Assembly: GCF_056746865.1 (NCBI RefSeq)
Contig: NZ_CM163382.1
Strand: one strand, 5' to 3'
Length of the DNA: 64,000 nucleotides
The stretch's first letter is position 1; every line of letters starts with the position of its first letter. Position numbers: made by a program. Below are positions 9,001 through 36,000 of the stretch, piece after piece.

Positions 9001-12000
9001 TGCCGGGAGATTGTCAGGTCATTGACCGGGTGTGAGCGGCTCGACGTAAGCGGTAGATATGCCCAATTCCCCCCGATAAATTCATTACCAAACACATTAT
9101 TCAATTTGTTTTTATTTTTCCGCTTTCAGTCATTATCGCTATCGCTTCGTCGGTAATGACTCCAACTTATTGATAGTGTTTTATGTTCAGATAATGCCCG
9201 ATGACTTTGTCATGCAGTGGATTTGCCCCTATATTTCCAGACACCTGTTATCACTTAACCCATTACTGGCCCGCTGCCGTAGATATTCCCGTGGCGAGCG
9301 ATAACCCAGTGCACTATGCGGATGCCATTCGTTATAATGCTCGAACGCCTCTGCAAGGTTCTTTGCTGCCGTTAACCCGTCTGGTTTGGGCATGATACTG
9401 ATGTAATCACGCTTTATCGTTTTCACGAAGCTCTCTGCTATGCCGTTACTCTCCGGACTCCGCACCGCCGTGTTCTTCGGTTCAAGTCCCAACATCCGGG
9501 CGAACTGGCGCGATTTAGCCCCGACATAGCCCCACTGTTCGTCCATTTCCGCGCAGACGATGACGTCACTGCCCGGCTGTATGCGCGAGGTTACCGACTG
9601 CGGCCTGAGTTTTTTAAGTGACGTAAAATCGTGTTGAGGCCAACGCCCATAATGCGGGCTGTTGCCCGGCATCCAACGCCATTCATGGCCATATCAATGA
9701 TTTTCTGGTGCGTACCGAGTTGAGAAGCGGTGTAAGTGAACTGCAGTTGCCATGTTTTACGGCAGTGAGAGCAGAGATAGCGCTGATGTCCGGCGGTGCT
9801 TTTGCCGTTACGCACCACCCCGTCAGTAGCTGAACAGGAGGGACAGCTGATAGAAACAGAAGCCACTGGAGCACCTCAAAAACACCATCATACACTAAAT
9901 CAGTAAGTTGGCAGCATCACCCGCTTTGAAGTGAACAATAACCAGGGTCGTTTCGTATTTCCGGATACCTGGTTTGGCCCATTACTGGGGGAGTTTGAAG
10001 AAGTGCTTGATGCATACGACACTGATGAAATCAGTGAGACGGGTTATATCAACAAACTCAGACGCCTTGCTCAACAGGAGCCTGACTTTATTGATATACA
10101 CGCTCATCTGGCATATGCATTTCTGGAGCAGAATGCCCCGCGTAAGGCACTGAACGCCGCTCTTAAAGGACTGGCGGCAGGTAATCGTCTCATCCCGGAA
10201 AGTTTCAGTGGTGAAATCATCTGGATGCATCCCGAAAACCGCCCTTATCTGCGCGCGCTTTATGCAACAATTCTCGCAAATGTGCACTTACAGCGTCATC
10301 AGGATGCGGTTATGCTCACTGATAAAATACTGGCATACAATCCTGAAGATAATCAGGGTGCCCGCTGGTTGTTGGGCTCAGAACTGTTACGAACAGGCGA
10401 TCATAAGCAAGCCTTCAGTGTACTGAAAGAGCATGCTGATGAATTTTCACCTTACTGGTATGAACTTGGTCTTCTGCATTTTCTGAATGGGGAACATGTT
10501 AAGGCTGCCACAGCTTTTCGTCATGGCTTTGCTACAAACACTTACATCGCGGAAATGCTGTGCGGAAATTTGCATCCATTTCCACTTGCTGTGCGGCATA
10601 ACTTCTCCGGCTCTCTGGATACGGCAGAAGATTACTATGCAACATACTCACCATTATGGGGACAATATCCGGAAGCATTGCTGTTTGTAAACTGGCTCTA
10701 TAACCATTCCTCTGTGCTGCATGAACGAGCAGAAATCATTAAATGCGCCGAAATGCTGATGCAGGAAGATGATTTCGAAATATGCGAAAGCATTTTAAGA
10801 CAGCAGAAGCTGTTGCGGGAAAGAATTGATGAGACACTTTCTGAGGAAATTGTACAGAAATGCAGAAATATTAACGGTGAATATGTCTGGCCCTGGATAT
10901 TGCCGTTTTCAGCAGCAGGAATGAAACACTCAAGCATCCAGCATCAGTAGATATTGCATTAGTGTATCTTTCAAACAAGTAATAATTTATCCACCAGTAA
11001 TAACACAGTCCCCCTTCCCCAGGTTATCGCCCTGGGGGCATTTTCTGAAAGTTTCCTTTAAAAAAGAATAGAGTCGTAAATTACTTTAACGAATTATTCC
11101 TGGAGTTCATTAAAGTTCTTTCGTAATACTTTGTAATCAAACACGTTATGACTGGCATCAAAAACCACGGATTTCCCCTGCCAGCGGGTAATCACCTCCT
11201 CCGGCGTTTTCGGTTGAGCCGGTCTGGTTACGCCCATCCATGCATTAATCAGATAATCATTATACGCAGTGGAAAAAACGCTGTTCACCGTCTGGCGATC
11301 GACATGCTCTCCCAGTGCCGGGCTGTACCAGATAAACATCGGAACATGATAAGCCTGCTGACTGGGTTTTATTCCACCATGAAAATAGGCATGTTCTTTT
11401 GTCGGGTCATACTCCAGACCGTGATCTGAAAAATACATGACGGATGCCTGACGCGTTTCCAGCATGGTGAAAACCTGTCCCAACAAACTGTCGGTATAAT
11501 GAATGGAATTATCGTAACAGACTTCTTCTGTATCCAGCGGTTTAAACACGGCTTTATCTCTGGGCCAGTTACTGCAAACCGGTTCATGGCTGCCCGTCAG
11601 ATGCAGAACAATCAGTTTCCTGCTCCCCGGATTACTGTTCAGTGCTTCAGCCAGGTGTGGGAGCAGTAACTCATCATAGCCTCTGACATAAATTCTGTTT
11701 CTGGCCCGCATGGCGATACTGGCCACAGCCGTTCCGTTCTGTCGGAAAGCGGACTGCGCACTGAGCCACCAGGTATCGAACCCCGCCTGATTCGCCATGT
11801 TGATAATGTTATCAGGGTAATTACGGATATCATGATGCAGTACACTATCGGCAGATAACGCCAGTGGAACAGCCAGCGCGGTGTAAGGTGCGCCACTGAT
11901 TGCCTGAGTGAACAGTTTCAGTCGTGATTTCTGTTTCTGAAGCTCTGGTGTGGTAGGGCGCGAATACCCGTAAATGGACATGTTATCAGTCCTTGCAGAT

Positions 12001-33000: not shown

Positions 33001-36000
33001 CGCCTGAATTTCTCAGTGAAGCCCTGAAACTTGCTGAACGCATCGGTGTTGCTGCCGCAGCCCGTGAACTCAGCCTGTATGAATCACAGCTCTATGCGTG
33101 GCGCAGCAAACTGCAGCAACAAATGAGTTCGTCAGAGCGTGAAAGTGAACTGGCCGCTGAAAATGCCTGCCTGAAGCGGCAACTGGCGGAGCAGGCAGAG
33201 GAACTGGCTATCCTCCAAAAGGCCGCGACATACTTTGCGAATCGTCTGAAATGAAGTATGTCTTTATTGAAAAACATCAGGCTGAGTTCAGCATCAAAGC
33301 AATGTGCCGCGTGCTCCGGGTGGCCCGCAGCGGCTGGTATACGTGGTGTCAGCGGCGGACAAGGATAAGCACGCGTCAGCAGTTCCGCCAACACTGCGAC
33401 AGCGTTGTCCTCGCGGCTTTTACCCGGTCAAAACAGCGTTACGGTGCCCCACGCCTGACGGATGAACTGCGTGCTCAGGGTTACCCCTTTAACGTAAAAA
33501 CCGTGGCGGCAAGCCTGCGCCGTCAGGGACTGAGGGCAAAGGCCTCCCGGAAGTTCAGCCCGGTCAGCTACCGCGCACACGGCCTGCCTGTGTCAGAAAA
33601 TCTGTTGGAGCAGGATTTTTACGCCAGTGGCCCGAACCAGAAGTGGGCAGGAGACATCACGTACTTACGTACAGATGAAGGCTGGCTGTATCTGGCAGTG
33701 GTCATTGACCTGTGGTCACGTGCCGTTATTGGCTGGTCAATGTCGCCACGCATGACGGCGCAACTGGCCTGCGATGCCCTGCAGATGGCGCTGTGGCGGC
33801 GTAAGAGGCCCCGGAACGTTATCGTTCACACGGACCGTGGAGGCCAGTACTGTTCAGCAGATTATCAGGCGCAACTGAAGCGGCATAATCTGCGTGGAAG
33901 TATGAGCGCAAAAGGTTGCTGCTACGATAATGCCTGCGTGGAAAGCTTCTTTCATTCGCTGAAAGTGGAATGTATCCATGGAGAACACTTTATCAGCCGG
34001 GAAATAATGCGGGCAACGGTGTTTAATTATATCGAATGTGATTACAATCGGTGGCGGCGGCACAGTTGGTGTGGCGGCCTCAGTCCGGAACAATTTGAAA
34101 ACAAGAACCTCGCTTAGGCCTGTGTCCATATTACGTGGGTAGGATCACATAACCTGAAATGGCACTAATGGCCAGAGCTTACTAATACATAATCCCTACA
34201 GGATGTAGCCACCAGTTTTGTTCATCCGGTATTCTGATTTGGTAACATGCTCCAGAAAGGAAGAAATATGTACTGCAATGAATTAAAAGAATTTGCGCAA
34301 GAGCAGGAACAAAAACTTATCAGTGCGCTTGCTGATACCAGAGAGCACCCGTCCCCCGATGGTGAAACAAGAAGCCGGGATAATTATCAACGGGATTACG
34401 CGCGTATTCTGTATTCATCATCATTTCGCAGGCTGCAGGGAAAGATGCAACTTTTTGAAATTGATCCTGAAAAATTCAACAGAAACAGATTAACGCACAG
34501 TCTTGAGGTTGCTCAGATCGCCCGAAGTATCGCGTCAGACCTCAAACTGATTAACCCGGTGGTGGTTGAACTGGCAGCGCTGGCGCATGACATCGGAAAT
34601 CCTCCTTTCGGTCATTCCGGTGAAAAACTGCTTAATGAACTGTCTGAAGAAATCGGCGGCTATGAAGGTAATGCACAGGCGCTACGTATCCTGAGAAAAC
34701 TGGAGAAGAAATTTTCATACTGCAACGGATTAAATCTGACTCACCGTAGTTTACTTTCGGTTGTTAAGTATCCCATCCCCCGCGCTGCAGCTACTGCCGG
34801 CAAGTTCATTTATGATGATGATTACTATTTTTACATTAACCTGCTTGCTGAAAATCAGCTCGATCTGAATCCCGGAGAGAAAACGATTGATGCGCAGATA
34901 ATGGATCTCGCGGATGAGATTGCCTACGCCGCGCATGACCTGGAAGATGCCCTTAGCAGGAACATGGTCACGATTGAAGATATTGAATATGAGTTTCAGA
35001 TTTCTGACGAATTCCGGGGAGCGAGGGAACAGTTCAGGGAAATCGTTACTCAGTCGAGAAACACCGCTTTTCAGGCTAACTTACTGAAAACCTCAGAAGA
35101 ATTTGCCATCATATTCCGCAAGGAGTTAACTTCAAATATTGTCAATCGCCTCGTTGCAGATATTTCTGTAGTAACGAACCTGAATGGTTTTCAGGAACTG
35201 GGGTTCGGGAAACTGAATGCGTTATCCGAAGGACTCAAAAAACTTCTCTTTAAAGTCATCATGCGAAAACGTAATATCCTCACCTATGAGTTCAGGGGAA
35301 ATAAAATAATCAGGGATTTATATGACTTTTACAATGAAGGAGAGAATTATAAATTTCTGCCTCCTGAACTTAAATTCACCTTACCCCAACCAGATTCCTG
35401 TATATTTGAAATCAGCAAAAAACGAGCAGTGGTTGACTATATTTCAGGTATGATGGATACATTTGCAGTCAAGGAATGGGAAACTCACTGTCTGAAGTAA
35501 CACTGCCGATTACCAGAGGCGCATATTTTCCCGTTATGGTTATTGCGCCTTTATTCCGTTTCGGTGACAGGTTATTTTAAATATTCTGGAAATGCGTTGA
35601 TGGGCAAGAACAATTACCCTGAAAATAAATACAGGAAATGGTTTTCCACAGCAATAACATATCTTATTACAGGTGGTTTGTGCTGGTATATGTTGTGGGC
35701 ATCCGCTATATCTCATTATACTGTTTTACAAAATACGGTACCTGAATGGACAACATATTTTTGCACCGGTATAATCACCGGATCTCTTTCTTTTATTTAT
35801 GCATTTTATATCCGCACCTTTAACAGAACATTAAAGTCTTTATTAAATGCATTCACGGGGGGATTTTGTCTTGGATTTATACTGAGTCCTGATGAATCCC
35901 CTAATGATTTTGATAAAAATCATTAGGGGATTCATCAGTGCTTGACCTTGTTTAAAAGCTGTAATATCGCAATTTACTAACTCAATATCTAAATCCATTG

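Follow-up and report, generated by a model that had tools for sequence, protein, structure and literature searches.

Which processes brought together the immunity modules that lie, packed between remnants of insertion sequences (IS), in a short stretch of an Escherichia coli chromosome, and which of these modules are likely to serve immunity at all? We addressed this question in a window of 64,000 nucleotides (the whole stretch of DNA that was analysed; NCBI RefSeq assembly GCF_056746865.1, contig NZ_CM163382.1), where a first-pass annotation had described positions 11094–35500 as a defence island with several immunity modules, sharp compositional shifts and a history of piecemeal acquisition. 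The defence island itself was borne out, all of the listed genes being found in place by Pfam, by PADLOC and in a 100%-identical genome as annotated by RefSeq. We consider it highly probable that an integrase-bearing genomic island at the tRNA-Phe gene (pheV) of E. coli carries this region as its defence-rich cargo, and that the region is a two-block mosaic, the blocks of which meet at an outer-membrane protein (OMP) gene. As judged from homology, the region holds two established systems, a type I restriction-modification (R-M) system and a dGTPase, and three candidate cassettes, with four mobile-element scars between them. The candidates, all of which have already been flagged computationally by others, are a cassette led by a WYL regulator (WYL cassette), an ATPase pair at the end of the R-M operon, and a four-gene cassette consisting of a 108-aa open reading frame (ORF), an HTH–Peptidase_M78 fusion (HTH-M78), a gene of the aGPT-Pplase family (aGPT) and a ‘ThyA-like’ gene of the thymidylate synthase (TS) fold.

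The location of the island was deduced from identical genomes. The 24.4-kb query 11094–35500 matched many E. coli chromosomes with 100% identity. In one of them, strain W2-5 (NZ_CP032989.1), the RefSeq annotation places yqgA, a tRNA-Phe gene and a tyrosine integrase gene, in this order, just upstream of the window. From this we concluded that the window begins inside the integrase of the pheV island; the C-terminal part of this gene, cut by the window start, occupies 62–910 on the + strand. Inside the 64-kb window we found no tRNA genes, the tRNA-Phe gene being located just upstream of it.

We then counted the parts of the region in 5426 complete E. coli genomes, a part being scored as present at ≥80% coverage. 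The whole region was present in 173 of the genomes, the WYL cassette in 373, the ATPase pair together with hsdS in 253, the ThyA-like and aGPT genes in 229 and the dGTPase gene in 317. The region is accessory, occurring in 3–7% of the genomes, and a conserved core synteny across E. coli is excluded. A plasmid origin of the region was dropped, as only fragments were found in the plasmid collection and the E. coli matches to the island modules were chromosomal in every case. An integrase at a known integration site, a variable presence and at least two recognised defence systems within a few kb (R-M and dGTPase) are thus combined here, as is characteristic of a mobile island. Rfam (gathering thresholds, whole window) gave no match, and Tandem Repeats Finder detected nothing over 11094–35500; CRISPR arrays, retron RNAs and riboswitches thus play no part here.

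Comparison with related islands revealed counterparts at leuX and pheU and defined the two blocks. Block R (17481–35892) gave a single unbroken blastn alignment of 18,412 bp, at 99.8%, to the tRNA-Leu (leuX) island of strain PCN033, and this alignment takes in the fragments of the integrase and of ISL3 as well as the frameshifted IS3 element described below. The PCN033 island lacks the WYL cassette, and its phosphoethanolamine transferase gene adjoins the OMP gene. Block L (9922–18299) is 98.2% identical to the pheU island of strain MS 85-1, which has no R-M block but carries the TPR gene, the transferase gene, the WYL cassette and the OMP gene, with H-NS and sucrose genes coming next. By this division Block L comprises the TPR gene, the phosphoethanolamine transferase gene, the WYL cassette and the OMP gene, and Block R comprises the OMP gene, the integrase scar, the ATPase pair with hsdSMR, the ISL3 scar, a MazG-like gene, the four-gene cassette, the IS3 scar and the dGTPase gene. 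The OMP gene (17482–18228, − strand; OmpX/Ail-like beta-barrel, Pfam OMP_b-brl 3.6e-20) is bracketed by the blastn boundaries 17481 and 18299, and this overlap is likely to be the recombination hinge of Blocks L and R. Since Block R is collinear at leuX and Block L occurs alone at pheU, the island consists of two pre-formed blocks that brought their scars with them.

The R-M system lies in Block R. The genes for the specificity subunit (hsdS, 21377–22519, 380 aa, AT-rich; PADLOC 2.8e-155), the methyltransferase (hsdM, 22516–24150, 544 aa; 7.5e-193) and the restriction subunit (hsdR, 24214–27630, 1138 aa; 1.7e-273) are all on the − strand, and PADLOC and Pfam matches over their full lengths indicate that the three are complete and form a single operon. 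By homology, this system would methylate the host sites and cut unmodified incoming DNA. Strain EC42405 matches all except 22106–22515, which is the N-terminal recognition domain of hsdS; this domain is locally swapped between strains. The hsdR protein carries an N-terminal DUF4145 domain and an EcoEI_R_C tail; the former also matches the PADLOC candidate PDC-M16A (1.5e-40, residues 5–212), and the same N-terminal domain was observed on the hsdR of a distant five-gene relative (L097).

The second established system is a dGTPase of the defence type (34247–35500, + strand; HD and HD_assoc domains), which matches the PADLOC dGTPase model over its whole length (1.5e-109) and, going by this homology, would deplete dGTP during infection. 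The mechanism of nucleotide-depletion defences, of the dGTPase and dCTP deaminase kinds, was reportedly described by Tal and co-workers in 2022. Automated annotation did not stop at the R-M system: beyond it, PADLOC models recognised the dGTPase, a PD-Lambda-2_B-like gene and the candidates PDC-M40B, PDC-M09A, PDC-M55A, NsnB and HEC-03. The detection of R-M alone, which the first-pass annotation had named as evidence against a defence island, did not occur.

Behind hsdS, and reading in the same direction (− strand), lie the two genes of the ATPase pair. The first (19746–21368) encodes an ABC-type ATPase of 540 aa with a DUF3696 tail (Pfam AAA_15 1.1e-22; DUF3696, residues 495–539), which resembles NsnB. 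Its best PADLOC matches are PDC-M55A (1.4e-40), NsnB (3.2e-37), HEC-03B (6.7e-25) and AriA (5.5e-22), and its Walker A (GPNSAGKT), Walker B (IAIEQPE) and H-loop (ETHSEH) motifs are intact. The second (18850–19746) encodes a partner of 298 aa for which neither a PADLOC model nor, by sequence search, a solved structure was found. A word-indexed search retrieved only close relatives of the partner, and an exhaustive search retrieved 777 relatives of about 300 aa. A structure model built from a 49-sequence alignment (pLDDT 95.6) matched PIN and PLD nuclease structures, the same set of matches that is given for NsnC with its PB-PLD1 domain in the Menshen paper (PMC12065111). The partner is accordingly a predicted effector of the NsnC type, whose N-terminal part has a PIN-like fold and whose C-terminal part has the nuclease fold of the PLD superfamily.

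The order hsdR–hsdM–hsdS–ATPase–partner–integrase recurs in a metagenomic relative whose partner protein is only 35% identical, from which we concluded that the five genes form a recurrent unit. The frameshifted integrase fragment at 18443–18627 (+ strand; RefSeq annotation), the first of the scars within the region, looks like a relic of the integrase that follows this unit. We infer that the pair is a Menshen-like NsnB/NsnC transducer–effector module placed, without NsnA, at the 3′ end of an R-M operon. Co-transcribed behind hsdS, the two proteins might act as a second-line nuclease module, the ATPase being a transducer coupled to the R-M operon. Membership in Menshen (NsnABC) proper was rejected, for the NsnA sensor is absent although the ATPase and its partner fit NsnB and NsnC: no DUF262 or ParB match, as expected for NsnA (ParB-DUF262), was found among the genes of 11094–35500, and hsdS immediately precedes the ATPase gene. 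Membership in PARIS (AriAB) was also rejected, since despite the match of the ATPase to the AriA model the partner has a PIN/PLD fold and not the TOPRIM/DUF4435 of AriB. Insertions have hit the ATPase gene repeatedly: it is cut by an IS3 element in FDAARGOS_1287, where the R-M unit adjoins cdiA, and is split by ISKpn26 in STEC306; in strain 035152 an IS1 lies within the module. This suggests that the pair is often inactivated.

The WYL cassette is encoded on the − strand in Block L. Its head is an HTH-WYL-WCX regulator (16166–17062; Pfam HTH_11, WYL 3.8e-09, WCX 1.6e-07; PADLOC WYL 2.6e-22), which leads the co-directional genes at 13157–16117. These encode a 359-aa protein with hydrophobic segments (15038–16117; PADLOC PDC-M09A 3.5e-22, weak DUF6161), its 523-aa partner with an N-terminal HNH-like motif and C-terminal hydrophobic helices (13420–14991; PADLOC PDC-M40B 1.3e-42) and, as the last cassette gene, an 88-aa YkgJ/CxxCxxCC cysteine-cluster protein (13157–13423; Pfam PF03692 2.6e-05), whose start shares 4 nt with the stop of the 523-aa gene. 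In the 523-aa protein the residues D110, H111, H119, D121, N136, N140, N149 and K152 are invariant and form the HNH-like motif; a weak Pfam match to GmrSD_C (E 0.11) covers the same residues, and a sequence search of solved structures gave no PDB relative. Hydropathy places hydrophobic helices in both the 523-aa and the 359-aa protein. The RefSeq name of the former, ‘ATP--cob(I)alamin adenosyltransferase’, found no support in Pfam or NCBIfam, and the 88-aa gene is annotated by RefSeq in some strains only.

The 523-aa family has about 1000 members in gamma- and beta-proteobacteria. In Pseudomonas the order [WYL]–365 aa–523/540 aa–87 aa CxxCxxCC is kept, and in Aeromonas the same order is found without WYL; in both genera the cassette is a small insertion between housekeeping genes. 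When compared with the three-family PDC-M40 set, the B component was matched, the gene upstream of it matched PDC-M09A and not M40A, and the 88-aa gene had no PADLOC match. WYL-regulated defence operons of the BrxR/CapW type are known. In the WYL cassette, a ligand-sensing WYL regulator could control a membrane-associated HNH-like nuclease, its membrane partner and the cysteine-cluster protein.

The remaining candidate had been described as two separate modules, a ‘HigB/peptidase pair’ and a ‘ThyA-like pair’. We observed that they are a single conserved cassette. On the + strand are the 108-aa ORF (29459–29785), which PGAP does not annotate, and the HTH_3–Peptidase_M78 fusion gene (29782–30864), in which the HEIGH motif is intact and which matches PADLOC PD-Lambda-2_B (8.7e-30, residues 15–341) and CapP (1.7e-10). 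Convergent to these, on the − strand, are the gene of an aGPT-Pplase clade 3/ADDT protein with a helix-hairpin-helix DNA-glycosylase-like fold (30867–31811; Pfam aGPT-Pplase3 4.8e-90, ADDT 9.1e-59) and the TS-fold gene (31808–32788), whose best PDB match is the CMP hydroxymethylase MilA (1.6e-41). For the aGPT-Pplase3 protein, 3903 relatives were found. Vibrio cholerae, Bradyrhizobium and Salmonella have the TS-fold gene followed by the aGPT gene, and the latter converges with a Peptidase_M78 gene (∼360 aa) across a gap of 0–3 nt.

We extended this comparison by tblastn to 86 loci, including 80 further genomes beyond the first examples. The TS-fold gene was upstream of the aGPT gene in 82 of the 86 loci and the HTH-M78 gene was convergent downstream of it in 83, most of the misses being at contig ends. 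The pattern was seen in at least eight phyla (Proteobacteria, Planctomycetes, Verrucomicrobia, Bacteroidota, Acidobacteria, Actinobacteria, Chloroflexi and Myxococcota). Just upstream of the M78 gene, 50/86 loci carry a homologue of the 108-aa ORF, and a family alignment shows this ORF to be conserved across phyla; that RefSeq lacks this conserved ORF is an annotation problem. Its HigB label found no support, as neither the ORF (Pfam with E up to 10, NCBIfam, PADLOC, PDB) nor a profile of the 108-aa family gave a match. The dGTPase gene was beside the cassette in 0/86 loci. The small gene named MazG-like by RefSeq (29049–29357, − strand; PHROG 24212 3.8e-37) was present in one locus, that of an Enterobacter (L011), and is a neighbour of the cassette only in Enterobacteriaceae; Pfam, NCBIfam and PDB gave no match in support of its name.

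Several of the loci depart from the E. coli arrangement, which is the minimal form of the cassette. About 30 of the 86 (among L016–L090; for example L025:6204-7004 and L041:5839-6144) have an extra gene of ∼265–280 aa between the TS-fold and aGPT-Pplase3 genes, to which Pfam assigned no family, and in a few loci a DUF4031 gene is added. In E. coli, 2 nt separate the stop codon of the HTH-M78 gene from that of the aGPT gene (30864–30867), and a near-zero spacing is kept across phyla. As such spacing leaves no room for terminators, it suggests that the two halves of the cassette interfere with each other in transcription.

The ‘ThyA-like’ label also needs to be revised. The match of MilA to the TS-fold protein is full length and includes the C-terminal helical extension. 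The 78 TS-fold homologues taken from cassettes all share Cys157, Glu67, Arg177, Ser178, Asp180, Asp188, His218 and Tyr220, and 69/78 have Arg130. According to the MilA study (PMC5175136), Arg/Ser specify deoxyribose substrates (Lys/Ala in MilA) and Asp specifies cytosine, the position being Asn in TS and dUMP hydroxymethylase. Arg130, Ser178 and Asp188 therefore give the residue pattern of T4 deoxycytidine monophosphate (dCMP) hydroxymethylase, and the enzyme is better read as dCMP-hydroxymethylase-like, a prediction from these residues. For the aGPT protein, a sequence search of solved structures found nothing, either with the protein alone or as a profile, and a sequence search with the MazG-like protein found nothing either. 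The fold of the aGPT protein is nearest to gp46, a 5-PmdU glycinyltransferase, and another structural neighbour is QNG1, which cleaves a free nucleotide.

We tentatively propose, as a possibility to be held with some reserve, that the genes at 29459–32788 are a widespread immune system of a new mechanistic type, in which an infection-sensing peptidase pair unleashes two enzymes that either drain dCMP or make a modified cytosine nucleotide by which replication of the phage is blocked. The HTH-M78 peptidase is presumed to be the sensor/regulator half of the cassette; together with its small partner it would sense infection or control the expression of the two enzymes. The hydroxymethylase would divert dCMP to 5-hm-dCMP, which the helix-hairpin-helix enzyme might cleave or derivatise, for example by substitution at C5 (alternatively, it might further derivatise 5-hydroxymethyl-cytosine), and the outcome could be a cytosine-nucleotide starvation or a toxic analogue.

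The genomic surroundings of the cassette are consistent with a defence function. In the flanks of about 50 diverse cassette loci, ∼9–12 of the 137 nearest ORFs were strong matches to known defence proteins, including GajB of Gabija (4e-234), a CBASS cyclase (1e-194), a DRT reverse transcriptase (2e-105), MzaA, DrmD and R-M subunits. As a rough baseline, a genome has ∼14 recognised defence genes, well below 1% of its genes (PMC13092281). DefensePredictor lists WP_000174035.1, the TS-fold protein of this very locus, as a ‘Predicted novel defense gene’ with a log-odds of 7.6 (PMC13092281); at least 1 of 12 island protein accessions was found among the entries listed in its supplements.

A number of observations weigh against so extensive an immune role, for the cassette or for the region as a whole. 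The aGPT-Pplase systems in the DefensePredictor study are predicted and not validated, and only 45% of the units cloned there were protective (PMC13092281). By Pfam, the E. coli cassette is without the kinase (5-HMUDK) that the phage aGPT-Pplase pathway needs; the extra gene of ∼265–280 aa in other loci might be this missing kinase. The regulator promoter (29316–29470) and the ThyA-like promoter (32780–32960) have no 10–14-mers in common, only short unrelated palindromes, so a shared operator was not found. The IS3 element begins a mere 168 bp away on the upstream side of the ThyA-like gene, the expression of which it may influence. Among the PADLOC models there is none for the 298-aa partner of the ATPase, for the 108-aa ORF or for the aGPT and ThyA-like genes. 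In the WYL cassette, the putative HNH assignment of the 523-aa protein rests on its motif and on the Pfam match at E 0.11, and the PDC families are guilt-by-embedding candidates of PADLOC. Finally, the phosphoethanolamine transferase gene (11094–12767, − strand; Sulfatase domain, Pfam 4.4e-50), a backbone gene and the first in the region that the first-pass annotation had taken as packed with immunity modules, matched no PADLOC defence model, nor did the OMP gene, which dilutes the picture of a pure defence region. The WYL cassette stands between these two backbone genes, whose products both act at the cell surface and could alter phage adsorption.

Observations of this kind could also be explained if only the R-M system and the dGTPase were immune and the WYL cassette, the ATPase pair and the four-gene cassette were unrelated cargo, such as addiction modules, regulators or decaying remnants of phage hypermodification. 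All three cassettes are candidates only, HTH-peptidases of the PD-Lambda-2B type behave as toxin–antitoxin-like pairs, it is in the modification of phage DNA that aGPT-Pplases and TS-fold hydroxymethylases are best known, and about half of the predicted defence units failed on testing (PMC13092281). However, in 8 phyla the four-gene cassette occurs in intact form, its catalytic residues invariant and no phage genes adjacent to it; its clade 3 aGPT protein matches no phage family in PHROGs, and its flanks are enriched in known defence genes. The ATPase pair, likewise, is built like validated systems (Menshen, HEC-03), and its place in R-M operons is conserved. We therefore consider the unrelated-cargo explanation rather unlikely.

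A second alternative concerns the four-gene cassette alone. The ThyA-like/aGPT pair could make a modified cytosine for the cell itself, either as an epigenetic mark on its own DNA or in a natural product, as MilA/MilB do in mildiomycin biosynthesis. That the best solved relative is MilA over its full length, and that the aGPT partner has a glycosylase-like fold with QNG1, an enzyme acting on a free nucleotide, as a neighbour, would be in keeping with such a role. We nevertheless regard it as improbable: the ribose-specifying Lys/Ala of MilA are Arg/Ser here, which is the deoxyribose pattern; no further biosynthetic genes are conserved around the pair in the loci examined; no kinase or polymerase is present to place a modified base in DNA; and the pair is tightly linked to the M78 peptidase regulator in variable, defence-rich neighbourhoods. 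Of the three candidates, the four-gene cassette is the best one to take into experiment.

We next turn to the compositional shifts, on which the idea of piecemeal acquisition was founded, and to the scars. The contrast noted between an AT-rich hsdS and ATPase pair and a GC-richer hsdM and hsdR was confirmed. GC content at third codon positions (GC3) was 0.27 for the partner gene, 0.22 for the ATPase gene and 0.26 for hsdS, against 0.61 for hsdM and 0.59 for hsdR; the pooled values of the two groups, 0.24 and 0.60, differ with a chi-square of 357 (p ∼1e-79). The change point, at ∼22692, falls within the last 60 codons of hsdM, at its 3′ end. Across the region, the standard deviation of GC in 1-kb segments was 0.059, compared with 0.016 expected by sampling alone. 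The GC3 break indicates that the modules have different origins, and their distributions among the genomes differ as well.

The four scars are an IS3-type integrase-core fragment with an IS1 fragment (9229–9866, − strand; RefSeq annotation), just ahead of the gene for a TPR-repeat protein with which Block L begins (9916–10950, + strand; RefSeq annotation and block alignment), the integrase fragment described above, an ISL3 transposase fragment (28207–28749, + strand; Pfam DDE_Tnp_ISL3 3.9e-10 over the C-terminal part of the profile only, PGAP pseudogene) and a frameshifted IS3-family element inherited with Block R (32956–34117, + strand; Pfam, RefSeq annotation and block alignment). A stepwise assembly in situ, in which each module was captured separately at this locus by flanking IS elements and the scars record successive insertions in this lineage, would account for the four scars separating the modules and for the differences in module composition and in module counts among genomes, but it is very unlikely and in large part refuted, as Block R, scars included, is collinear at 99.8% at another tRNA gene (leuX), Block L occurs alone at pheU, and the block junction is a shared gene and not an IS end, with no inverted repeats found around the IS3 copy at 32956–34117. 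Since Block R is collinear elsewhere and the junction is a gene, any stepwise assembly must be older than this island and have taken place in another location. The scars are inherited fossils. Of the proposed piecemeal acquisition, the different ultimate origins of the modules hold good, but the acquisition did not proceed module by module at this locus, where two blocks came together. ‘IS-flanked modules’ can thus be inherited fossils and are not proof of a local stepwise capture.

The remainder of the window shows what else the island carries. Between the integrase gene and the defence cargo (1060–8651) lies a sugar operon of the raffinose/sucrose type, with genes for a substrate-binding/regulator protein, an alpha-galactosidase, an MFS permease, a GH32 hydrolase and a carbohydrate porin. 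To the right of the region are pap fimbrial remnants, with papA/papB/papI fragments at 35945–37436, and inside them a multidrug-resistance region (37364–46022) with an ISCR2 fragment, floR, a LysR gene, tet(A)/tetR, APH(6)-Id, APH(3'')-Ib and sul2. The GC content of the resistance region is 56–64%, as against 44% in the defence region, and it truncates, at 35892, the gene that comes after the dGTPase gene in other strains. Further cargo at 48254–62154 encodes a 1291-aa SPATE autotransporter (Peptidase_S6), an AbgT transporter, a ROK regulator, a GDPD phosphodiesterase, an ABC transporter and a Cu/Zn superoxide dismutase; PADLOC, run on the autotransporter and the AbgT transporter among these, gave no match. 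The island is a mixed pathogenicity, resistance and defence island, and as a defence island it is ordinary.

The practical value of these results is that three candidate systems, all compact and cloneable, now have exact coordinates and evidence from comparison behind them. The four-gene cassette has the same order in at least 8 phyla, an invariant active site and a position beside known defence genes far above chance. If it protects, cytosine-nucleotide chemistry would join the nucleotide-depletion defences and clade 3 aGPT-Pplases would gain a function; if the proposed mechanism is true, the cassette would be a bacterial anti-phage use of the chemistry by which phages hypermodify their own DNA. 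An NsnB/NsnC-like pair behind hsdS could show a coupling of R-M to an abortive nuclease without a dedicated sensor, and the WYL cassette, with its putative membrane-associated HNH-like protein, is the third cloneable candidate.

Finally, we compared the island and its modules with known systems. Defence systems of E. coli ride mobile elements at a few dozen hotspots, ‘integrase-only’ islands included (Hochhauser et al. 2023, PMC10121019). The present island shares with them an integrase beside a tRNA gene, several defence systems per element and an occurrence in a minority of strains, as well as the same cargo at different hotspots (here pheV, pheU and leuX). Nothing essential is different, the cargo here adding sugar use, remnants of pap, a resistance region with ISCR2 and a SPATE autotransporter; the island is one more case in which integrative elements at tRNA sites carry E. 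coli immunity, here in company with cargo for resistance and virulence. The ATPase pair differs from Menshen (PMC12065111) in that the window has no NsnA and the pair forms the 3′ end of an hsdRMS operon, and from HEC-03 (bioRxiv 10.1101/2024.01.29.577857), an ABC-ATPase/effector pair of the kind embedded in other systems, which has an active VapC-like PIN, in having a PLD domain instead. The WYL cassette resembles PDC-M40 and PDC-M09 in its 523-aa and 359-aa proteins (PDC-M40B and PDC-M09A, respectively), with a three-gene core led by the HTH-WYL-WCX regulator. However, it mixes parts of these two candidate families, and it is not embedded in another system but stands between the transferase and OMP genes.

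The four-gene cassette has partial likenesses to several systems. In PD-lambda-2, the B protein is toxic alone and neutralised by A, and C is required for defence (Vassallo et al. 2022, PMC9519451). An HTH-plus-peptidase protein with a small overlapping gene in front, as in A/B, is common to both; in the cassette, however, the small gene has no PD-Lambda-2_A match, the pair is instead convergent with two nucleotide-modifying enzymes, the HTH-M78 stop being 2 nt from the aGPT stop, and a third gene C (P4-antitoxin-like) is absent, for which reason membership was rejected. With phage thymidine hypermodification (PMC8989533) the cassette shares a protein of the aGPT-Pplase family. The phage pathway combines 5-hmdU, the kinase 5-HMUDK and an aGPT-Pplase belonging to clade 2, whereas the genes here are bacterial and chromosomal and the protein is of clade 3; the uracil-type Asn of that pathway is replaced by the cytosine-type, invariant Asp188, so the enzyme does not fit a dUMP hydroxymethylase. 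The MilA/MilB pathway has Lys133/Ala176 in place of Arg130/Ser178 and a MilB that has no homologue here, while the cytosine-specifying Asp is common to both. A presumed regulation by an M78 peptidase pair is a feature of the cassette, unlike the phage pathway, T4 dCMP hydroxymethylase and MilA. The validated system DS-4 (PMC13092281) consists of a TS, a dNMP kinase, a 5-hmdU DNA kinase, a TIR and an NMAD protein, of which only the TS-fold gene is common, the kinases, TIR and NMAD being absent here. With the nucleotide-depletion defences, the cassette would share the strategy itself, if it indeed drains dCMP as we have proposed.

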